The notes beneath the pieces are model-generated. The model did not search any database. It was not told where the DNA came from and saw only the letters and a list, made by a program, of their open reading frames with translations. Below are positions 2,931 to 61,210 of a stretch of DNA of 64,000 bases, piece after piece (position 1 is the stretch's first letter; every line of letters starts with the position of its first letter). This DNA is from a virus, in the IMG/VR virus record IMGVR_UViG_3300045988_084189, positions 1-64,000 of that record; one strand, given 5' to 3'. A program made the translations under genes and the position numbers.

Positions 2931-5900
2931 ATGGTTGAAGCTGCAACGGAATTTAGAAAGAACGGATTCAATGATTCCGATGCGGCAACATTAGCAAAAA
3001 CTGCTACGATGTTCCAGAACGTCTCGGATGAGGCTATTTCCGCTGGCGATTCTGCATCGTTTATAATTTCTCAGATGATTGCATTTGGCATTGAGGCTGA
3101 AAATGCACAGTCAATCATCGATAAAGTCAATGAAACGGCAAATCGTTTTTCTGTTTCATCTGGCGATTTATCTAAAGCTCTAGGTATTGTGGCATCCACA
3201 TCGTCTGCGATGGGCAACTCTATTGACCAGACTCTTGGTGTTGTCACTGCAATTACAGAGCAAACTCGTAATGCAAGTAAATCTGCAAGAGCGGCCAATA
3301 CAATTTTTAGCCGGTTGGCTCAAGTTGTAGACGAGAATAGTGATACTGGTAAAAAGCTTACAGAGATTTATAATAACCTTGGTATTGCGCTATACGACAG
3401 CTCTGGACAGATGCGCAGTACCTATGATATTCTAGCCGATCTTGCATCAAAGTGGGATTCACTAGATAAGAATACTCAACAATATATAGCTATTACTAGT
3501 GCGGGTACAAATCAGTTAAACAATTTCCTCGCGCTGATGAATAATTTCGATCACGCAGCAGAAGCAACAGCGACATCTATCAATTCAGCTGGTTCAGCAA
3601 TGCGTGAGAATGAAGCATATCAAGAATCGCTCGAATATCAAACTAATAATCTTAAAGCAACATTCCAAGATTTAGCAAATAACGTTATTGATAAGCAACT
3701 TATTTCAGCATTATTAACCCTTGGCGACGCTTTCTTAAAAGTGGCAAATACTGGTCTTGGCACATTTATTACTAAAGTTGGATTACTAGCTGGTACGGGT
3801 TGGGGATTGAGTAGCTTATTAAAAGTTAGCCACATATTGCCAACCATTGCTACACAGTTTAGTAATTTTGGAGCAGTTATATCCCTTGTAGCAGAGGGTT
3901 CTGGTACGTTTGGTGCTGCGATTAGTGCTGCCGGTGGTGCGGCAAGTGTCGCATTGCCAATATTCTTAGCTGTAAGTGCGGCTATTGTAGGTATCATCGA
4001 ACTTGCTAATGCTCTTGAAGAAAATGCCCACAAAGCAGAAAAGCAGCTACAAGACCTAAGAACGCAAATCGATGAGATGGAAGACCCGGTTAGCGAATAT
4101 AGCAACTTAAAGAGCCGAGTTGATGAGCTTACTGAATCTGAGAAAATCCGTCTTGGTGTTCTTCAATCACAACTTGATACACTTAAAGAACAAGAGGAAG
4201 TTATAAGCCGCCAGCAGCTTGCAAAGTGGCAAAAGGGACAAGTTGAAGACCAGACCACATACGTCACAAATTATGACGATTATGGGTATGGTGTAACTGA
4301 GGCATATACTTATAATCAAGCGGCTGATTCTCTAAATAATTTTAGAGAAGCATATCTTGATTTAGAAAGAGATAAGAAGAACGGGCAAATTAGCAATTCT
4401 GAATATGTTTCAAGTCTTCAATCTCTAATTGATAAGAACCAGACAACCATTACTAACCTCAGAGATCTAAAGACGGCATATGAGGAAACTGGCGATGCCA
4501 CATATAAACTCAATGAGAATCAAGAGCGGTTCTTGTTGTGGGCTGATGCTGCTAGTGAAAAATTAGCGACTAATGCAACCAATGTAGCAAATGCGGTACA
4601 AGCTGAACAAGACGCAGCAGATGGTGTTGAAGATGCCATGTCTCAAATTGAGGTAGCCACCTATGACACTTCGACTGCTGCAGCTCAATTGACCGCATCT
4701 CTGTTTGACCAAAATGGACAATTGACTACAGCAGCACAAACAGCGTTGGCGGTTGATGGGTCAATGGTATCTTTGGAGCAGTCTGAGCTACAAGCACAGC
4801 AAGCCGCCGCACAGGCTAATTACGCTAATCTGGTTCTTCAAATTCAACAGGTTGGTGCAGCAGCTGCTATTACATCTAGCCAATTACAGTCGATGATGGC
4901 TATGGCTGGTGTTGCCACTGGTGGAGCATCTATTGGCTCTTCTAGTTCTAATCTACAAAGAACATATAAGGAATTAACTGGTAAAACAGCACAATCTAAC
5001 GAATCGGCTTATAAGTCTTGGTTGACCAACTATCTTGCAGAAAAAGGTCAAGCCAATTACGAAAAGATTATGTCTGAAACCCAGAAAAAACTTGATGAGT
5101 TAAACAAGAATGTCCCATCAGGTGTTGGTGGTGGTGGCGGTTCCTCCAAAAAATCTGCCGAAGAAAAAGCTGCAGAAGAAGCTGAAAAGCAAGCCAAGAA
5201 AGCCCAGCAAGCCCAAGAAAAGGCGGCTAAACAATCTCAGCAAGCATATGAATCAGCCGCAAAATCTGCTGAACAAGCCGCTCAAGAAGCCGCCCGTGCG
5301 GCAGAGCAAGCCGCTGAAGAAGCCAAGCAGAAAATCCTTGATTCTATTCAAGAGCTAAAAGACGCATCTGATGATTTCTGGGATAGCAAAACAGACGCTA
5401 TTGAAGAAACCAATAAAGAGCTTGACCGTCAAAAACAACTTGAGGAAAAGCTCAAAGCCCTAGAAGAAGCCAAGCAAAAGAAAATCCTGCTCTATAAGAA
5501 TGGCCAATTCCAATATGATAAGGATTATGGCACGATTGCCAAAGCTCAAGCCGATTACGAGGAAACCCGTGATAAGATTCAGCGTGAACGTGAGCTAGAG
5601 CAACTTAAAGAAATGAAAGACAACGCCAATGAGATATTCAACGAAATGAAGGATATTGTTCAGAATGGCGGCGATGTCACCCAAGAGATGATTAATAACT
5701 GGCTCAAAAATATGGCCGCATCCGGGGCTGATTATTATGATAGCAATAAGAATCTGCTGAATGAATGGCTGGATTGGGCTAAAAATGCGCTGCAGACATA
5801 TGGTCAAGGCGTGGTTGATGCGGTCAATGGCTACATTTCAACAAGTAGCTTGATGAGCAACGGAACGTATGGCAGTAATGCACAAGGCATGGTAGCTACA

Positions 5901-47925: not shown

Positions 47926-48762
47926 TTAAAAATTCACCACCGACATTGCGGTAATTGCTCTTTGTTCTGTTCTCTTAACGTACCTAGATGTGATCTGGAT
48001 TCCAGAATGTCCCATTGCCTTACTAATGACCTCAATCGGCACATTAGCCTCAGACATCATAGTAGCAAATGTGCGGCGCATTGTATGATTGCTAATATGC
48101 AATTCTTCCCAATTCTCAATACCAGCTTTTCTAGCACATACCTTGAGCATAGCACTAGTATTCTTGCCATCCATTTTATTGCCACGATTACCCACGAACA
48201 GATATTCACAGCCATCTTTGCGCTCATTAGCAATATAGCTATCAATCAGCTTGATCGTTTCATCAGCCAAGCCAACCAATCTATCCTTATCGCCCTTACC
48301 ACGGATGACCAGTACATTATTGCTACGGGATTCATACTGCTCAAGCGTGATATTGGCAAGCTCATGAATACGCAAGCCAGTCTGAGCAAGCATCATAATA
48401 ATCGCCTTATTGCGCAGATTGGTAGCAGCATTGACCATTGCTCTGACCTGTTCGCCATTAAGAGCCGACTGCTCACGATTTTTAATTTGCGGCGCTTCAA
48501 GCATCTCAGCAGGATTGCGGCTAATGAACTCGTTACGATACAGGAACTTGAAATATTCACGAACCGCTGACGTTCTCTGAGCAACAGATGCAGAACTGAG
48601 ATTGCTCATGCTGGACTGCCACAGCTCAAGGTCAATCGGCTTGATTTCAGACTCAGGCTTGTTGACATATGCCATGCAATTCTCAATCGCCTTAGTATAT
48701 TCACGAATAGTGCCCTCGCTACGGTGCTTTGCCTTGAGGCTCATAACAAACAGTTCGTTCAT
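47926..48762 (-). CDS. tyrosine recombinase / integrase (XerC/D-like)
   Basis: Catalytic residues in TGLRIHEL, HTMRRTFAT and GHSGIQITSRYV (R..HxxR..Y). The ATG at 48762 follows AAGGAG+9 nt and lies downstream of promoter 48792..48820; the track start at 48804 lies inside that promoter. Confidence 0.8.
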   Translation of the reverse strand: MNELFVMSLKAKHRSEGTIREYTKAIENCMAYVNKPESEIKPIDLELWQSSMSNLSSASVAQRTSAVREYFKFLYRNEFISRNPAEMLEAPQIKNREQSALNGEQVRAMVNAATNLRNKAIIMMLAQTGLRIHELANITLEQYESRSNNVLVIRGKGDKDRLVGLADETIKLIDSYIANERKDGCEYLFVGNRGNKMDGKNTSAMLKVCARKAGIENWEELHISNHTMRRTFATMMSEANVPIEVISKAMGHSGIQITSRYVKRTEQRAITAMSVVNF

Positions 48763-48791
48763 AATGTTCAGCTCCTTCATTTGATGGTTTA

Positions 48792-48820
48792 AGTATAGCA
48801 CCATAGCGGCGATTTGTCAA
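48792..48820 (-). promoter_or_regulatory. sigma-A type promoter
   Basis: Minus strand: cTTGACAaatcgccgctatggTGcTATACTta. Confidence 0.65.
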
Positions 48821-50289: not shown

Positions 50290-50366
50290 TGGTAGCTCAG
50301 GTGGAATTCGAATCCACACTTTACGGATTTTGAATCCGCTCCCTCTGCCGATTGGGGTACTGAGCC
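50290..50366 (-). tRNA. tRNA, anticodon CAA (nominally Leu) with a short variable loop
   Basis: GGCTCAG-TA-CCCC-AATCGGCAG-AGGG-A-GCGGA-TTCAAAA-TCCGT-AAAGT-GTGGA-TTCGAAT-TCCAC-CTGAGCT-A-CCA. It folds into a cloverleaf and encodes CCA. Confidence 0.7.
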
Positions 50367-51200
50367 ATATTCAATCTCAAGCCGACTTCCTGCCTCATAG
50401 CTATTTCTAGCATCGGCTCGTGAATGATGTTTACATAATATCCTTATATCACCTTCGTCGTTACGTTTTTGCATGGATGCTAACGTGGCACGATTGGGCG
50501 CGACCCCAATTCTCTAGTCTGTATCTGCCGCTTCTCAAACTCTGCGCAGACCCCAGTGCGGGCGTGATATAGATTTGACGGTTATCTTCAAATCCGGTCG
50601 GATATTATATTATTTGTCAATCCCAATCCCTTTTATTATGCCGAACAGATTGACTAGTGCGCCCTACTTGGCATTAGGCAATTACGCCATTTATGCTTAT
50701 CTCATTTGTCTTACGCACGTTCCCTTGCTCGCTTTTTTATCAAAGACCGACATACCACGTAGGATATGCGGTTAGCTTGGTTTGCCTATCGCACGAGCAA
50801 TGATAGGTTTTTTACGACAATATGGTAGCTATGACCCGGTTTCATGGTCAATTACGAAGAGCAGTTAAAAGTTGTTACCTTTTACTTAAAATCTCTCTTC
50901 AACCTCTTACGAGGGACTAAGCCGTATCATTCGGATTTCCCGACTCATTTCGACTTGCGGATTTGTTACCTACCGCTGCACTACCTGCTAACCTTTCTAT
51001 GTTAGCCCCGACCCGTCTGTTCAACTATCGTTAGCTATTGCCGAAGTGTTATTGCACTCTACTCCATATGGAAGACCTATTTGATCGTTCGAGTGCAACA
51101 TATGATGGCTGTTCATCAAACTCCACTTAGCTGTTTCGTAATGCCCATCTGAACTATGTCAGGACTCAGCGATTTCAGCACCATCATCTTTACATTCTCA

Positions 51201-51573: not shown

Positions 51574-51649
51574 TGGTCGAGGGTAAGTGATTTGAACACT
51601 TGTAGCACGATTATAAGTCGTGTGGACTAGACCGCTGTCCGAACCCTCG
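51574..51649 (-). tRNA. tRNA-Ile (anticodon UAU)
   Basis: CGAGGGT-TC-GGAC-AGCGGTCTA-GTCC-A-CACGA-CTTATAA-TCGTG-CTAC-AAGTG-TTCAAAT-CACTT-ACCCTCG-A-CCA. All stems are fully paired. Confidence 0.85.
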
Positions 51650-53517: not shown

Positions 53518-54198
53518 CTACGGTTCGATTATACCATATTCATTTACATTTGTCAAGAGAATATTTGCCCATTCTGCATTTTTATCTTCAGTCAGATAGA
53601 AAAATTTATGACCACCAATCGTCATCGCATAATTCTGAGATTCATGCCATGGGCTATCGCACAATTTTGGGGCATAGAAAAACAGAATCGGCTTTTCGGT
53701 CACAAATTGCCCCATGTCAAAAATATCATGCACAGCATCCATGACTTCAATATACATTTTTCTATCCTGCTTATCCAAATCCGGATTCCAACCGGCATAC
53801 TGGTAGACCTCTTTGACTTCACGAGCCGTCAAGCCGTCTTTAATCATTGCATCAAAATAGCACTGAGCAACAGCCAACTTGCCTTTATACGGCTCATAGG
53901 CGCATTCACCAGCCATTACAGATTCAATAAACCAACGATCATCCTCTGTTAAATTGATGGGAGATTTATAACGTTCAATTTCAGATTCCTGTTCTACAAT
54001 CTGTGGCTCGACGTAGATATATTGCGGCTCAACAGATTCAAATTTTGATTCCTCAATCGGTTTGGTCTTAACGGTATATTGTACAGATTGCACGTTATGG
54101 CTCGATTCGAATGGACTCAGGATAATACCCATACATCCAGCCAACCCAAATAAGGCAAGCCCAATTCCTGCAACGGCACATCTAGTTGTACGCTTCAT
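53518..54198 (-). CDS. lipoprotein, SleB/CwlJ-like cell-wall hydrolase domain
   Basis: Signal peptide with the lipobox LAGC. GECAYEPYKGKLAVAQCYFD resembles the Hydrolase_2 family. GAGGAGG RBS. Confidence 0.5.
   Translation of the reverse strand: MKRTTRCAVAGIGLALFGLAGCMGIILSPFESSHNVQSVQYTVKTKPIEESKFESVEPQYIYVEPQIVEQESEIERYKSPINLTEDDRWFIESVMAGECAYEPYKGKLAVAQCYFDAMIKDGLTAREVKEVYQYAGWNPDLDKQDRKMYIEVMDAVHDIFDMGQFVTEKPILFFYAPKLCDSPWHESQNYAMTIGGHKFFYLTEDKNAEWANILLTNVNEYGIIEP
53528..53556 (-). promoter_or_regulatory. sigma-A type promoter inside the 3' end of the lipoprotein gene
   Basis: Minus strand: cTTGACAaatgtaaatgaataTGgTATAATcg. Confidence 0.6.
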
Positions 54199-54219
54199 TT
54201 TAATTTACCTCCTCAATAT

Positions 54220-54378
54220 TCATTTTTCATTTTGTGGCTCGTATATATGTATATCACATTTGATTCTATTTGTCAAGTATGAATTTCAATTTTCATTTTG
54301 GGATTATAAATATCAATTCCGATTTTAGAATTTCATTTTCCACATATATTTACAATCTCGAAAGTCATTTTTCATTTT
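54220..54378. repeat. three copies of TCA(T/A)TTTTCATTTT
   Basis: Copies lie at 54220, 54285 (one mismatch) and 54365. The first and third extend to ~30 nt: ...CTCGT(A/GC)ATATAT. Confidence 0.5.
54248..54276 (-). promoter_or_regulatory. sigma-A type promoter (weaker -10)
   Basis: Minus strand: cTTGACAaatagaatcaaatgTGaTATACAta. Confidence 0.5.
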
Positions 54379-54379
54379 C

Positions 54380-54740
54380 CAGCTCGTGCATATATAGATA
54401 TCTATATACGTACACATATACAATAACAATAATCATTATCATTTACACATACATATATCAATCAATCGATATATTAGCACATCCATCTACATATACATTT
54501 ACATATTCATATGCAGATACATCTACATCATCATGCACATAAATGATGCAGATAGCAATACGCATGATATAGATAGATATATTTATCGATAATGCGCAGC
54601 TTTATGTCTATGAATAAAAGCATTACTTTCATGCACATATCACGATTTATATTAGCATCAAAGTCAACATCATTCACATTTTTCATATGAATATTCACCA
54701 ACAGCATCACATTTTTACATGGGAGATTTATGTACATTCA
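54380..54740. repeat. G-depleted CA/TA-rich low-complexity tract
   Basis: The + strand is almost devoid of G for >150 nt (catatatacaataacaataatcattatcatttacacatac...). It also contains the ATCGAT-centred palindromes aatcgatat and TTATCGATAA. Confidence 0.6.
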
Positions 54741-55306
54741 CACATTTTTCCATTGTAAAATAATGTGCGGTTGTCGGCTGGCAACTTGTCTGTATGACAT
54801 AAGACGCACAAGTTATGAGCGCAGATTTCACCATAGCCATGTCGCGCCGTTGGAACCGATTTGAGCCGAGTTTATACTCATCCTAGGTAATATATGCCCA
54901 TAGTCGATTCGAGCCGCCACGCCTGTCCTGAGCCACGCATCGTCGCCGCGATTGTATATAGGCATATATTACCGGGGGAAAATTCGTTTGACCTAATCCG
55001 CACACGCGCACATGAGAAAATCCGGCTCGATTTTTCCGCGCCGATCCATTATATGTACTGTATATTGCTGGGAAAAATGTAAAAAATTGTAAGGTGCGCT
55101 CGTACTTATGCCCGCTCGACCCCTCGATTTTTCACTTCATTTGAGTAAAGCATGGTGGGAAAATATGGTAGTTAAAGTCGTCTAACAAGATTTGTGAAAA
55201 AATGGAAATAGCCTGAAAAGTTGGAAGTTGTGCAGATTGTACAAACATAGTTAAACGCCTTTAACTCATGTTCGACCTTCCCCTCCTCATATGTTATCCA
55301 TAGGTC
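54740..55306 (-). ncRNA. candidate non-coding transcript or structured leader
   Basis: The consensus promoter at 55313..55341 points into an ORF-free GC-rich segment. Only a 9-codon mini-ORF follows the RBS-like GAGGAGGGG. Confidence 0.3.
54886..54973. repeat. perfect 13-bp inverted repeat
   Basis: GGTAATATATGCC (54886-54898) and GGCATATATTACC (54961-54973), separated by 62 nt of GC-rich sequence. Confidence 0.8.
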
Positions 55307-55312
55307 ACTTTG

Positions 55313-55341
55313 ATTATAGCAGATTGATCGCAGCTTGTCAA
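55313..55341 (-). promoter_or_regulatory. sigma-A type promoter
   Basis: Minus strand: gTTGACAagctgcgatcaatcTGcTATAATca. Confidence 0.7.
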
Positions 55342-55351
55342 CAAAAAAATT

Positions 55352-55407
55352 GCATAAAAATAAGCCGCCAATTTTGGGCATATTGTACAATGCCCTTCTG
55401 GCGGCTT
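55352..55407 (-). terminator. long hairpin terminator
   Basis: Outer stem aagccgcca/tggcggctt with inner stem gggcat/atgccc. A T-run follows on the minus strand. Confidence 0.55.
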
Positions 55408-55454
55408 TGGCGGCTTTATACGGCGCGAACTATGCCGGGGATATATAAACATAG

Positions 55455-55493
55455 GGAAGAAAAGAAAAGCCCATAGCGGTCAAGCTATAGGCT
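55455..55493 (-). terminator. rho-independent terminator
   Basis: Minus strand: agcctatagc-ttgacc-gctatgggct followed by tttcttttctt. Confidence 0.55.
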
Positions 55494-55511
55494 TTAGAAT
55501 TGCTATTTGAT

Positions 55512-55820
55512 TCACGGCAGTAAATCATATCTATCATATCGGGCCGATACGATCATATCATCGTGAACGTCCTGCGTTCCCATATCGCAGAAGATACAAG
55601 TGATATCATCTCCAACTTCATAATCACCTGTATCTGTATCAAATGCGTAGACCATGCCGCCCGAAGTTTGAACGGAAACGCGCTCCGTGTCCTTGTCTAC
55701 GGTTTCAATTGCAATGCAGCGGCTTGCATCGGCATAGATTCCATATTTTAGAATATTCTTTTCCTTCGTAGCGGAAAACAGCGAAGAAATCAAAATTGCA
55801 ATAGTGATAATAGCCTTCAT
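55512..55820 (-). CDS. secreted or membrane-anchored small protein
   Basis: 102 aa with the N-terminal signal-like MKAIITIAILISSLFSA and a GGAAGGAG RBS. Confidence 0.5.
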   Translation of the reverse strand: MKAIITIAILISSLFSATKEKNILKYGIYADASRCIAIETVDKDTERVSVQTSGGMVYAFDTDTGDYEVGDDITCIFCDMGTQDVHDDMIVSARYDRYDLLP

Positions 55821-56325: not shown

Positions 56326-56550
56326 TTATTTACAATTTTTTACAATAAAATCCATTGCTTCTTCTTCCGTATCAAATGTTTTTACCTTATTTTCCCAAGT
56401 TTTGCAAGTATACGGATTTCCAGCCCATGCAACAAAATAAGGATTTTTTACGCCTCTGCAATGATATTCCAAAATGCCAACATATCCATCTTTTGAATGA
56501 ATATAATACGTATCAAAATAAGCATTCCCTTGTCTGTAAATCTTTTCCAT
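56326..56550 (-). CDS. small hypothetical protein
   Basis: 74 aa with a GGGAGGAGGA RBS. It ends ...VKNCK. Confidence 0.45.
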   Translation of the reverse strand: MEKIYRQGNAYFDTYYIHSKDGYVGILEYHCRGVKNPYFVAWAGNPYTCKTWENKVKTFDTEEEAMDFIVKNCK

Positions 56551-56569: not shown

Positions 56570-56776
56570 TTATTTACAATTTTTTACACTTTGCACCCGC
56601 TCAATCACATTGTAAAAAAGTGGTAGAATTTCGGCGGGCGCGGGCTTGTTTCTTGACACTGGCAATAATTTACAAATTTGTAAATAATCTGCATCACTAT
56701 CAATATGGTAGTTTATTGAATCTGCCAATTTCTGGAGTTGGTATAATTTTGAATCCCAGTATTTTACAGTGTGCAT
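56570..56776 (-). CDS. small hypothetical protein
   Basis: 68 aa with an AGGAGG RBS. It also ends ...VKNCK. Confidence 0.45.
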   Translation of the reverse strand: MHTVKYWDSKLYQLQKLADSINYHIDSDADYLQICKLLPVSRNKPAPAEILPLFYNVIERVQSVKNCK

Positions 56777-58573: not shown

Positions 58574-58861
58574 TTTAATTTCCTCCCTAAAAATTTTTAG
58601 TATGACATAGCGCTTTTTTTATCTGGTAAAAAACGCTTGAGAAAAACGCCCTTGCATATCGTATCAAATGCAAGTTTGATATATGCGAACTATACGCGTC
58701 GCATATCACGCTAAAAATTTTATCCTCCTATTTTTTGGTTATTTTGCCCGCTTGCGTCGCAATACTGCCTTTATCAACTAAGCGGGACTTTTCATGTTAT
58801 TCACTTGCCAAGGTACAACCGGCGCTTCGTGCCGTGTCGTTGTTTCGCTCTGTATGCTTTC

Positions 58862-58889
58862 ATTATAGGCATATAGCCGGAAAAGTCAA
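58862..58889 (-). promoter_or_regulatory. sigma-A type promoter (TTGACT-N16-TATAAT)
   Basis: Minus strand: cTTGACTtttccggctatatgccTATAATga, ~280 nt upstream of the first island gene. Confidence 0.5.
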
Positions 58890-59271
58890 GAGCTCTGTTA
58901 TAAAAATATTGCACAAAAAAGTACGGCTGATTTTATGCAAATTTACGAAACGGATATTATATATATTATAGTATATAATAGCTGGACAACGATAAAAGTA
59001 TATAATGCCGCTCAGAGGCGCTCAGAGCCGTTTTAAGCGGTTTTTATGTTCAGACGTAAAATCATACGGCGAAGAAAAGTATTCCGTTATACATATTTTA
59101 TACAGTTTCAATATTCATTATTTTAATGGTAAATAGCTATGATATGCACTCAAAAAGTTAGAATATACTAGAATTGTATTGATTATTGTATAGTTATGCA
59201 ATGAATATACTGTATAGATATACATTTCTGTATTATTAAGAATTATTCTTATTATTGAATCAGTATAATTA

Positions 59272-59404
59272 TATCGATATTGATTATTGTATATTTTTAT
59301 CGATATATTATATCGATATATATAGCCATATAGTGTACTGATTATAATAGTTACAATATAGTTACAATGTGTTGCATAGTGGTATCAGTATTTGAATATC
59401 GATA
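59272..59404. repeat. cluster of four TATCGATA palindromes
   Basis: Copies lie at 59272, 59298, 59311 and 59397. They are interspersed with the repeated GATTATTGTATA and AATTGTATTGA motifs. Confidence 0.7.
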
Positions 59405-59765
59405 TAATTGTATTGAATATGACTGTATCTTGTGTAGTGTATTAGATATACTAATTGGTATAATATGGATAGTTTAGTAAATGGTGTTTACTGGTAGGAG
59501 TAAGTGGTGTTTACCAAAAATCATATAATGTGTAACGCGTACGCGCGTATGAACTGTATTAATTCGATTGATACAGTTGGAAAAATTTTGTTCTATAATT
59601 GTAGAATAAGATTGACTCGCATAATCATGCGATAGATATCGCATTTTCATATGAAACAGTGGGAAAGTGCTATTTTCCGGCGTTTTTGATATTAGCAGTA
59701 TTTTACAGGACGGGGGCATGGTTATGGATGAAGATGGTAGAAATGGATGAAATTGGCATTTAGCA

Positions 59766-59935
59766 CAACAATTCACACACCATGTAATCATGCACATTCT
59801 GTCTATAACACTATAACAACAAACCACATAGTCTGTAATATCATACAGACTCCAACAAACTACACAACCTGTAATCAGATATGTTTTATCATCAACAACA
59901 AACCTAATACCATGCGATCAGGATTATCACACAGA
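59766..59935 (+). repeat. four degenerate ~40-nt CA-rich direct repeats (iteron-like)
   Basis: Units start near 59766, 59816, 59854 and 59894, with a core like AACAA(C)AAAC..ACA...(C/T)TGTAATCA. The + strand is G-poor. Confidence 0.5.
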
Positions 59936-60038
59936 TATGAGTTGGGGGGATTTTTATTTCTCTTATAAATATCAAAAATTTTCCCCCATACGCTATAGTA
60001 ATAATTTACAATTCGTTAACAAATAGATGATTAGAATA

Positions 60039-60047
60039 TGGTATAAT
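60039..60047 (+). promoter_or_regulatory. extended -10 promoter candidate for gene 60182
   Basis: TGgTATAAT with no good -35. Confidence 0.35.
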
Positions 60048-60072
60048 TGTTATAAGATTTAGATGAATTTAA

Positions 60073-60160
60073 TTTTTGTCTAAATCGTGATACTAATATA
60101 ATACGCAGTATTATTATAGTATCATCACTTAGACAAAAATTTTTTTCATTTAGACAAAAA
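60073..60160 (+). promoter_or_regulatory. operator or leader hairpin: three copies of the 11-mer TTAGACAAAAA
   Basis: An inverted copy lies at 60073-60083 and direct copies at 60129-60139 and 60150-60160. The first two flank an imperfect palindrome, and a T7 run follows at 60140-60146. Confidence 0.55.
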
Positions 60161-60181
60161 TGTGAAAGAGGCTTATTTTAT

Positions 60182-61210
60182 ATGAGAAAACAAAATATCA
60201 AACAACCAACAGGCGCTGAATTGATTAAATCATTAGAAAAGGTAGAAGGGCGCGAATTAAAATATCAAGACTTATGCAAAGCGCTTAATTTAACACCAAA
60301 AGGCGGCTGTTCGAAAGTAACGCAACTTGATAACATTAGAAATTATTGTCAACTAGATACGCTAGAACATCCTACCCGTTATATTGTCCAAGAGGTATAT
60401 CCTGAAGCAGATGCCCTTATCAATGAGCTAGATAAAGATTCATATCAAGCCGCATTTGAAGCCGCCCTTTATCAAATATTTCTAAAGACAAACTGCGCCA
60501 CTATATATGCGTCAACCAGCAATCTACTTAGAATGTTCCAAGAGGTCAATGATAATTTTAGCTATACATATAGCCAAGCCGTAGAAAATTCAGAGCATTA
60601 TGGCTATATGAGTTTAGTCAATGGCGTTGTATATAATATTCTTGCTCAATGGACTAGGCGCAAATTGCTAACCATGAAAAACCGCTATGTCATTGACTTG
60701 AATAGAGGCTATCGGCTCTATAAGCAAAGAAGCAGCCCAGAAGGAAAAGAAACATGGCTCGAAACATATGACGTACCAGAAGATAGCTCGGATCATCAGA
60801 TTTGTCTTTCTATCCATTCTAAAGCCGTCAATGAGATAATGCCGCCAAATTGGGGTAAGGTTATAGATAATAGGGTCTACAAGCCATATGTGTCCACAGA
60901 GCAATATAAGGCGTTTGAGGCGCGGCTTGCTCAATTAACTCAAGAGGCATTTGGCGGCGAATATGTCAAAGTCAAAGAAGTCTATATCATCAAACCAGCC
61001 ACAAAGGAATGGATAGCTAATCGGTTATTAGATGTCTATGAGCATTATCCTAGCTTTGAAAAAATCAATAAAGAGGCTTGCGCTAAGATTATTCAGACCA
61101 GCCAGCTTAGTTGTATCACAGGCAAACAGCGGCGCGAATTTGTTGATATCAATATGAGCAATAAGCAGAGCGACAAGCTCAAGGATTTAGTCACTAGTGA
61201 AAAACAATAA
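60182..61210 (+). CDS. hypothetical protein, possible DNA-binding or initiator protein
   Basis: 342 aa; the only + strand gene in this part of the window. It is adjacent to the iteron-rich region and has an HTH-like N-terminus (LKYQDLCKALNLTPKGG). The function is inferred from context only. Confidence 0.35.
   Translation: MRKQNIKQPTGAELIKSLEKVEGRELKYQDLCKALNLTPKGGCSKVTQLDNIRNYCQLDTLEHPTRYIVQEVYPEADALINELDKDSYQAAFEAALYQIFLKTNCATIYASTSNLLRMFQEVNDNFSYTYSQAVENSEHYGYMSLVNGVVYNILAQWTRRKLLTMKNRYVIDLNRGYRLYKQRSSPEGKETWLETYDVPEDSSDHQICLSIHSKAVNEIMPPNWGKVIDNRVYKPYVSTEQYKAFEARLAQLTQEAFGGEYVKVKEVYIIKPATKEWIANRLLDVYEHYPSFEKINKEACAKIIQTSQLSCITGKQRREFVDINMSNKQSDKLKDLVTSEKQ

Follow-up and report, generated by a model that had tools for sequence, protein, structure and literature searches.

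In bacteriophage SPP1, the longest intergenic regions hold transcription signals together with the replication origin oriR, and both of its origins are built from direct repeats along with an AT-rich unwinding element (PMC6316719). By analogy, SPP1 is the nearest described case for the locus analysed here, a 1.3-kb non-coding gap (positions 54199-55511) in a stretch of 64,000 nt from the IMG/VR virus record IMGVR_UViG_3300045988_084189; this stretch is called the window in the following, and all coordinates refer to it. An earlier reading of the same DNA (the original prediction) had described a consensus promoter that fires into a GC-rich segment devoid of open reading frames (ORFs), with a 13-bp inverted repeat in that segment and an AT-rich tract beyond it, and had proposed a transcription-activated replication origin or a standalone non-coding RNA (ncRNA); every coordinate that it reported falls within the gap. 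Comparison with relatives moves the centre of interest to the AT-rich tract (54760-54200), which is under purifying selection, being conserved about as well as neighbouring coding DNA, and which we tentatively read as a cis-acting DNA element, most likely an origin of replication. Phage control or origin regions are known as a kind, to which the locus adds a new, uncharacterised case.

The two phages are alike in that both are Firmicutes siphophages with a DnaB-type helicase of their own, and the position of oriR in a longest intergenic region, bracketed by transcription signals, has its counterpart here. The SPP1 repeats, however, are bound by gp38, and oriL lies inside the gp38 gene, whereas the putative origin described here comes with no recognised initiator and shows no sequence similarity. 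Transcription-activated or R-loop origins form a second group for comparison, with T4 oriF and oriG, the T7 primary origin, ColE1 and the ori of lactococcal phage c2 as known cases. At the present locus, too, a strong promoter is directed towards AT-rich DNA, no terminator intervenes, and the RNA-like strand carries an excess of G over C, a bias by which an R-loop would be favoured; yet in those origins the promoter is integral and conserved, while here it belongs to an optional cassette and, instead of adjoining the AT-rich tract, sits ~550 nt upstream of it. Because the cassette is dispensable in half of the family, the locus falls outside the definition of an R-loop or transcription-activated origin, which includes an integral, conserved promoter. 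For the oriV of RA3, activation by incoming transcription is described (PMC9455977). Located in the long terminal repeat, the injection-stop signal (iss) of phage T5 contains eight ordered DnaA boxes (bioRxiv 10.1101/866236). It resembles our locus as a gene-free region of more than 1 kb that holds repeats, inverted repeats and palindromes, is conserved among relatives and lies beside small early genes, but a cluster of DnaA boxes is missing from the gap; a T5-type injection-stop signal finds no support, the gap lacking an ordered array of such boxes.

The source is a ~97-kb gut siphophage of the Firmicutes type. Its window encodes the tape-measure protein and tail proteins of a tailed phage, replication proteins (DnaE-type polymerase, DnaB-like helicase, primase, RecJ-like and RecD/Dda-like proteins), a ribonucleotide reductase, a Sak4-like annealing protein, two tRNAs and one RAGATH-33 RNA, and its ribosome-binding sites (RBSs) are of the GGAGG type; the closest matches of the polymerase, at 35-39% identity, come from large Bacillus/Geobacillus siphophages and human-faecal phage contigs. 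All genes around the gap lie on the minus strand, so that features are read on this strand as the coding one. With a 102-aa ORF (55512-55820) upstream and a lipoprotein-type cell-wall hydrolase of 226 aa downstream, the gap is the boundary of two leftward early transcription units. It has no DNA-level similarity to deposited phages. Within the family, 25 further contigs containing the gap were aligned to the window through protein- and motif-anchored scans, and two more contigs bearing the promoter cassette were compared by BLAST. The contigs of the relatives span 83-98 kb and fall into a clade A, 63-91% identical to the window across the gap, and a clade B, whose members share 92-100% identity with one another and 55-66% with clade A. 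A hidden coding sequence was not found in the gap, as its ORFs reach at most 45 aa, none of them is conserved, and indels among relatives are not multiples of three; in a 35-aa ORF over the paired palindromes HP-A and HP-B (Table 1), amino acids vary freely between clades.

The tract stands out by composition and by conservation. Its GC content is 26-30% at 54300-54700, compared to 39.5% for the window, and its plus strand is depleted of G, with 3-15 C per 100 nt of minus strand over 54700-54400. Between the clades, identity amounts to 0.72-0.96 over 54580-54481, 0.88-0.92 over 54380-54281 and 0.64-0.76 over 54730-54631, values comparable to that of the hydrolase gene and the DNA immediately preceding it, for which one BLAST alignment gives ~79%. 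The direct-repeat stretch includes an invariant block of 24 nt (54697-54668); AAAAATGTG occurs three times at exactly 33-nt steps, again with the spacing kept in clade B, and 9 of the 48 minus-strand AAAATG sites of the window fall within these 550 nt. Over 54530-54481 the clades are 96% identical, and several palindromes follow downstream. One of them, TGATAATGATTATTG, resembles a Fur/PerR-type 7-1-7 box, agreeing at 15 of 19 positions with what we take to be the consensus, GATAATGATAATCATTATC, a likeness that could be due to chance in AT-rich DNA.

This conservation does not follow the flanks. The tract is kept in relatives without the promoter cassette, in a contig in which the hydrolase gene is truncated (L005), and in one from which that gene is absent (L034), its place being taken by another consensus promoter, a 56-aa ORF and a tRNA. 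Being kept irrespective of the promoter upstream and the gene downstream, the tract is an autonomous module and not the private leader of one gene; the region as a whole has the appearance of a mosaic, self-contained non-coding module of ~1 kb (~55244-54200), for which a role as origin, as transcription control region, or as both is plausible. In a further relative (L004, ~4300-4985, equivalent to 54330-54215 of the window), a gene resembling HNH_3 homing endonucleases, with a consensus promoter of its own, is inserted between the tract and the RBS of the hydrolase gene, taking the place of the native promoter and of two AAAATGAAA repeats.

We lean towards an origin because conservation is continuous over blocks of 75-100 nt far from any promoter, and because it is independent of both flanks. 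The anatomy of the tract agrees with this: it offers an AT-rich, easily melted stretch, and its three GAAAAATGTG repeats and HP-A/HP-B are phased, conserved and similar to binding sites. The 33-bp-phased repeats and HP-A/HP-B may thus be putative binding sites for a phage or host initiator, and the flanking DNA of 26-30% GC could act as the unwinding element; in strains that carry the cassette, transcription through the tract might help opening, and a regulator would be able to silence the cassette promoter through the palindromes O1 and O2. Of the transcription-activated origin of the original prediction, then, the AT-rich tract stands, conserved and with the anatomy of an origin, and the transcriptional part does not, given that the promoter is optional, 10 of 22 clade-A contigs and the whole of clade B being without it. 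The origin idea survives, if unproven, but it is the AT-rich array and not the promoter to which it attaches. If the array were an origin, it would provide a handle on replication in a widespread, uncultured family of gut phages, usable for estimates of activity from read depth, for origin-trap or interference constructs and for host-range tools, and it would show that a strong promoter can be gained or lost at such a site as a discrete cassette.

Several observations weigh against an origin in the tract. No initiator family was recognised in the window, whether among the neighbouring genes or in the replication module; neither gene next to the gap is an initiator gene, and 11-22 kb separate the gap from the replication genes. 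The gap holds no cluster of DnaA boxes, only two isolated one-mismatch matches to TTATCCACA, of which there are 30 in the window, and the cumulative GC skew has no turning point at 54-55 kb. With the cassette promoter missing in half of the relatives, activation by transcription could not be general unless Pa, Pb or another promoter substitutes for it, and the four AAAATGAAA repeats could be decayed gene starts. A second conserved non-coding AT-rich region, present in both clades at 58.9-60.2 kb (58870-60180), is a rival site and an equally good or even better candidate for the origin. Its GC content, 25% at 59.2-59.6 kb, is lower than that of the tract, the GC skew reverses locally, and it adjoins a conserved, divergently oriented orphan gene of 342 aa (60182-61210, plus strand). 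This gene is 84-91% conserved at the DNA level, clade B included; its protein has no match in Pfam, PHROG or among PDB sequences, profile search included, and only 23 homologues, all of them metagenomic. The second region also contains several ATATCGATAT palindromes and TTAGACAAAAAT repeats, and it has 14 11-mers in common with 54200-54760, compared to 3.4 ± 2.5 in Markov shuffles, which recalls the two origins of SPP1 and proves nothing. At its edge, a promoter TTGACT-16-TATAAT (58889-58862, minus strand), with the half-palindrome TTTTGTGCAAT just upstream, is followed by ~280 nt without an ORF up to the next RBS; this stretch (58574-58889) could be another leader or an ncRNA and has no Rfam match at gathering score.

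As an alternative to an origin, the tract may be a purely transcriptional control region for the strong early promoter that follows it, made up of weak tandem promoters, DNA-bending phased A-tracts and regulator sites and without any role in replication, and in some strains the cassette would supply one more early promoter, of greater strength. We regard this as possible, if on balance doubtful. The tract is in every case followed by a sigma-A promoter of consensus or near-consensus sequence (54276-54248 in the window, TTGACAAATAAAATTTTATATGGTATAAT in L034), weak promoter-like sites lie within it, GAAAAATG A-tracts are phased at 33 bp, the O1, O2 and GTTAGA palindromes look like operators, and mosaicism of the kind seen in this region is usual for phage early control regions; in SPP1, intergenic AT-rich islands also serve transcription control (PMC6316719). 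Regulatory regions, however, usually consist of short motifs separated by free spacers, whereas the conserved blocks found here run on for 75-100 nt at 200-500 bp upstream of the promoter, and the tract is kept although the promoter and gene that follow it differ between the clades.

It is also conceivable that the tract acts as RNA, expressed from the minus strand as a G+U-rich, C-poor hairpin array with HP-A/HP-B as its core, which could be a leader, an RNase III substrate or the precursor of a small RNA. The folding energies speak for such an RNA: the minus-strand alignment fold of 54588-54475 reaches -26.8 kcal/mol, compared to -9.9 kcal/mol for column shuffles (z = -5.9), and z remains at -4 to -6.3 across 54750-54380 on this strand, with a weaker signal on the plus strand. 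Moreover, HP-A/HP-B are predicted in 13 sequences from both clades, where many one-sided changes keep a G.U pair, the folded strand is the transcribed one, and the phage already expresses an ncRNA, RAGATH-33, from a consensus promoter. Nevertheless, we consider a hairpin RNA quite unlikely. Compensatory double changes are seen at none of the 28 predicted HP-A/HP-B pairs, the unstructured GC-rich control (276:209) matches the stems (134:90) in its excess of G.U over A.C, and the sequence found in L093 and L101 breaks the outer stem of HP-B. The palindromes fold on both strands, with RNA z = -3.2 and -3.6, the latter on the plus strand, and also as DNA (z = -2.2); a terminator or defined 3' end was not found, and Rfam yielded only chance miRNA-like matches with E no better than 0.3. 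Strand-specific selection on RNA in the stems was likewise rejected, since a first test that looked significant proved to be confounded by base composition, with rates and control showing the same bias; transition rates per site differ little between stems and loops. As the G.U:A.C bias is equal in the control, the symmetry points to the DNA level rather than to a strand-specific RNA, and we take it to be mainly a DNA-level feature, which leaves room for a role as RNA or single-stranded DNA.

The full-length RAGATH-33 RNA (50923-51035, minus strand, 139.9 bits) lies ~170 nt downstream of a perfect consensus promoter (51229-51201), between genes for tRNA-Leu(CAA) and tRNA-Ile(TAT), the tRNAs being located at 50290-50366 and 51574-51649.

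The promoter that had drawn attention to the locus is as perfect as described, scoring 12/12 with an extended -10 (TG), and transcription would start near 55305. When TTGACA-N16-18-TATAAT was matched across the window, ten perfect sites with a spacer of 17 nt were found, compared to 0.11 expected by chance; all lie on the minus strand at 32-55 kb, with the cassette promoter as the most upstream of them. By its sequence, this promoter is a genuine member of the phage's consensus sigma-A-type set, and through these consensus promoters the phage clearly recruits the main sigma factor of the host. The two tandem terminators upstream of it were confirmed as well, t1 with z = -7.05 in the alignment fold, on the minus strand only, and t2 with z = -4.6 as a single sequence over a stretch of 156 nt. 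The RBS-like run and the nine-codon ORF MRRGRSNMS, too, are present as the original prediction had it. As a coding gene or leader peptide, the latter was discarded, because neither the ORF nor its start codon is maintained among relatives: ACG replaces ATG in L112 and L115, and the inner ATG is missing in L001 and L100.

All these elements but t1 belong, in whole or in part, to a discrete promoter cassette of 129 nt, which comprises the 3' half of t2 with its U-run, a U-run that is missing in cassette-free relatives. The cassette is found in 12 of the 22 clade-A contigs, the other 10 having a filler of 19 nt instead, and in a subgroup of clade A it is kept while the 150 nt that follow it are missing. 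In clade B exactly this position is taken up, in opposite orientation, by part of a class I aminoacyl-tRNA synthetase gene with a ValRS-like PPPNVTGxLHMGHAL motif (PF00133, E = 6e-13); this valS fragment, which covers the HIGH-motif region, is host-derived, decayed and frameshifted (L034, 4548-4745, minus strand, and likewise L005, L006, L079, L093 and L101). Elsewhere in IMG/VR the cassette was not found, and a mobile element was ruled out, as the cassette is confined to a single locus within one phage family. It is an optional, strain-variable insert and no conserved part of the element, and as the promoter is missing in relatives, any conserved function of the region cannot depend on it. 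Where the cassette is present, transcription into the G-depleted tract, as originally proposed, finds support: no intrinsic minus-strand terminator is predicted between 55300 and 54200, so that transcripts should cross a leader of ~1.1 kb, enter the AT-rich tract and then reach the next gene.

The segment between cassette and tract (54740-55244) has the composition that the original prediction gave for it, with a GC content of 44% (locally up to 49.5%), a CpG observed/expected ratio of 1.38, compared to 0.84 for the whole window, and no minus-strand ORF longer than 45 aa in 55270-54740. GGCTCGA-type motifs indeed occur in both orientations (GGCTCGAA/GGCTCAAA on the minus strand at 54908 and 54860, GGCTCGAT on the plus strand at 55024), and GAAAAATCGAG is present twice. 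It is also the most diverged part of the gap, with an identity of 0.28-0.5 between the clades over much of its length, and its between-clade BLAST matches are limited to the O2 block and one stretch over the promoter-like blocks Pa and Pb; the only others in the non-coding module fall on blocks of the AT-rich tract. Conservation of Pa is 0.93 within clade A and 0.70 between clades, and Pb resembles the promoter at 58889-58862, with which it has ATATGCCTATA and TTTCC.GG in common. A 15-mer just upstream of Pa (55078-55092) recurs in inverted orientation in two adjacent small ORFs (56326-56550 and 56570-56776, minus strand), both of which end in VKNCK, the peptide stretch that it encodes there. 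An organisation of the segment as about three degenerate tandem units of 97 nt was examined and dropped, as unit alignments were not above shuffles (z <2.5); the autocorrelation peaks are weak (z 2-3), lying at 96-98 and 194-196 for clade A and at ~90 for clade B, and only short motifs recur (ATTTTCCC..TATAAT, GAAAAATCGAG).

That this segment yields a standalone structured RNA, in which the 13-bp helix closes a 62-nt domain, is highly improbable. The inverted repeat as such was confirmed; 300 dinucleotide shuffles of 54740-55341 never produced one of 13 bp, so that chance does not account for it in this sequence, and across nine sequences 80% of the helix cells are paired, compared to 25-54% with the register slid. 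Clade B, furthermore, keeps a shorter pairing, GGCA(A)TATA/TATATGCC, at the same position. Yet the helix is perfect in the window only, every relative having a central mismatch or bulge, and the central pair forms in one of the nine sequences. Shuffles give at least the observed number of paired cells in 89 of 500 cases and reach the covariation score in 76 of 500, and the consensus fold retains no more than 11 helix pairs with a covariation term of zero. The interior of the repeat (54-75 nt, GC-rich) exists among relatives in two unrelated versions with indels, and the 5' arm lies in the spacer of Pb, of which the 3' arm is an inverted, degenerate copy. Some constraint on this inverted duplication is possible; nothing argues for an RNA domain. 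The folding energy of the 505 nt is unremarkable, with z = -0.95 for the minus and +0.62 for the plus strand. Sliding alignment folds of nine clade-A sequences equal column shuffles on both strands (z -1.3 to +0.5) in a test that gave z = -7 for terminator t1. Rfam has no match at gathering score in the gap of the window or in that of ten relatives, and at permissive thresholds the best hits in the gap have E >=0.3 and all lie in the AT-rich tract or at the terminator. A terminator for such an RNA is lacking as well, and half of the relatives have no promoter for it. The GC-rich segment is thus no conserved structured RNA. The original prediction had made its case depend on the repeat being conserved or compensated in relatives; by and large it is neither, which tells against the ncRNA but not against an origin. 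A perfect promoter and a perfect repeat in one genome did not mark the conserved element, and it was the relatives that shifted the functional core ~400 nt downstream.

Finally, we give hardly any credence to another repeat- and palindrome-rich DNA site, such as a partition site, a site related to packaging or, close to an end of the genome, an injection-stop signal like that of T5: 13 of ~28 related contigs do end at positions equivalent to 53.9-60.1 kb, and the ORFs upstream of the gap are small and highly mosaic, but the T5 signal needs ordered DnaA boxes in a terminal repeat, of which there is no cluster here, and the contig ends are scattered and coincide with structural polymorphisms (presence of the cassette, indels), as expected of assembly breaks among co-occurring strains. 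Among these contigs (L002, L003, L007, L079, L093, L099, L110, L112, L114, L116, L117, L119 and L121), L112 and L117 end at terminator t1, where the cassette polymorphism starts, L003 and L099 end within the AT-rich tract, near an indel and an internal repeat of 52 nt, and the genes at 55.8-58.8 kb are highly mosaic among relatives; we read the ends as strain-level structural variation that probably broke the assemblies, and not as evidence of genome ends.

Phased operator pairs are a familiar feature of phage early promoters, as in the lambdoid OR and OL regions, and LexA boxes are found at the terminal promoters of tectivirus GIL01. The cassette is flanked by two copies of a 17-bp palindrome, TTGTGCA-N3-TGCACAA, designated O1 and O2, which lie 146 bp apart in the window and 33 bp apart in relatives without the cassette; the window holds these two and one weak copy. 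The 29-nt O2 block, 96.5% identical between the clades, is the best-conserved block upstream of the AT-rich tract, in surroundings too diverged between the clades for BLAST to align. The palindrome is found in many unrelated viral contigs (among loci L013-L096). A second copy within 120 nt is present at 14 of 70 distinct sites, compared to 0.036 expected per site, although 4 of these 14 (L016, L048 and two in L066) lie in apparent tandem repeats within coding sequence. Preferred spacings are 30-33, 41-43 and 62-64 nt, that is, about 3, 4 or 6 helical turns, and the sites are frequently neighbours of TTGACA promoters or close to the ends of contigs of 10-17 kb. When one genome per species was scanned, the exact pair was found in 12 stretches (L124-L135), with essentially none expected, in metagenome-assembled genomes (MAGs) labelled as Christensenellaceae, Eubacteriales, Acutalibacteraceae, Clostridia, Lachnospiraceae, Endomicrobiaceae, a Bacteroidales genus, Solibacteraceae and Myxococcales. 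The palindromes thus resemble known operator pairs in being paired at helical phase, in relatives as well as in unrelated phages, beside sigma-A promoters, and they resemble the GIL01 boxes in lying near the termini of small linear phage genomes; they differ in that their sequence also occurs in MAGs of several phyla. We know of no operator or global-regulator box that matches it, and we found no literature on the motif and no protein common to the loci that bear it.

The widely distributed palindrome is the most unusual by-product of this analysis, and should one regulator recognise it, phage early transcription would have a common control point there. Taken to its full extent, the argument leads to two separate readings. 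In one, the tract would be a new kind of origin, belonging to an uncharacterised family of ~97-kb gut Firmicutes phages, whose firing is tuned strain by strain through a swappable promoter cassette between two operators. In the other, TTGTGCA-N3-TGCACAA would be the site of an unrecognised, possibly host-encoded regulator that serves many unrelated phages and mobile elements across bacterial phyla, at their early promoters and genome termini. Such readings seem to us rather unlikely.

Table 1. Features of the gap and its downstream border, in the order of minus-strand transcription (window coordinates)
Feature	Position	Strand	Remarks
Terminator t1	55466..55495	-	12-bp stem and U-run; ends upstream transcription unit
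Terminator t2	55352..55407	-	Long hairpin (55407-55362), palindrome O1 in loop, then UUAUUUUUAU
Palindrome O1, TTGTACAATATGCCCAA	55374..55390		7-3-7; operator-like; in t2 loop
Promoter cassette, 129 nt	55245..55373	-	t2 3' half, promoter, Shine-Dalgarno-like purine run, mini-ORF, hairpin
Promoter TTGACA-17-TGcTATAAT	55313..55341	-	-35 at 55341-55336; -10 ends at 55313
Mini-ORF MRRGRSNMS, nine codons	55261..55290	-	ATG at 55290, TAA at 55263-55261; GAGGAGGGG inside
Palindrome/hairpin AGTTAAA-GGCG-TTTAACT, copy 1	55249..55266		Cassette 3' end
Palindrome O2, TTGTACAATCTGCACAA, and 12 nt	55216..55244		Palindrome itself 55244-55228
Palindrome/hairpin GTTAGA-CGAC-TTTAAC, copy 2	55169..55186		
Pa block	55048..55092	-	Ends in TATAAT, then GC-rich run; -10-like, no usable -35
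Pb block	54951..54985	-	Promoter-like (ATTTTCCC..AATATATGCC TATA(C/T)AAT)
Inverted repeat	54886..54973		Arms 54886-54898/54961-54973; perfect over 13 bp, 94% over 17 bp
Three direct repeats GAAAAATGTG(TG)AATG	54669..54750		Exactly 33 bp apart; spacing kept in clade B
Palindrome ACTTTGATGC..GCATGAAAGT	54625..54664		40 nt; folds on both strands
Tandem imperfect palindromes HP-A (54554-54520) and HP-B (54519-54484)	54484..54554		Common 9-mer arms TATCTGCAT/ATGTAGATG
Palindrome ATATATC-N8-GATATAT	54474-54453		
Palindrome TGATAATGATTATTG	54441-54427		Conserved in both clades; overlaps -35 of weak promoter-like site
Perfect 18-bp palindrome TATATAGATATCTATATA	54408-54391		
Four copies of (G/C)(G/C)AAAATGAAA(A/T)TGA	54217..54382	-	40-66 nt apart, around next promoter
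Downstream-gene promoter TTGACA-17-TGaTATACA	54248..54276	-	89% identical over 28 nt to promoter before RAGATH-33
SleB-like hydrolase gene	53518..54198	-	226 aa; PF07486 below cut-off; phrog_18750 2e-27; lipoprotein signal peptide (…LAGC); early-type promoter

Two smaller palindromes of the GTTAGA-N4-TCTAAC type lie on either side of O2 (Table 1). Their centre varies freely among relatives, while the arms show compensatory changes, from A-T to G-C in copy 1 of L112 and L115, and from A-T to C-G in copy 2 of clade B, which reads GTTAGC-ATAT-GCTAAC. Farther along the window, this otherwise lytic-looking phage with its own replication machinery encodes a XerC/D-like tyrosine recombinase (47926-48804, minus strand; Phage_integrase, E = 1e-33).

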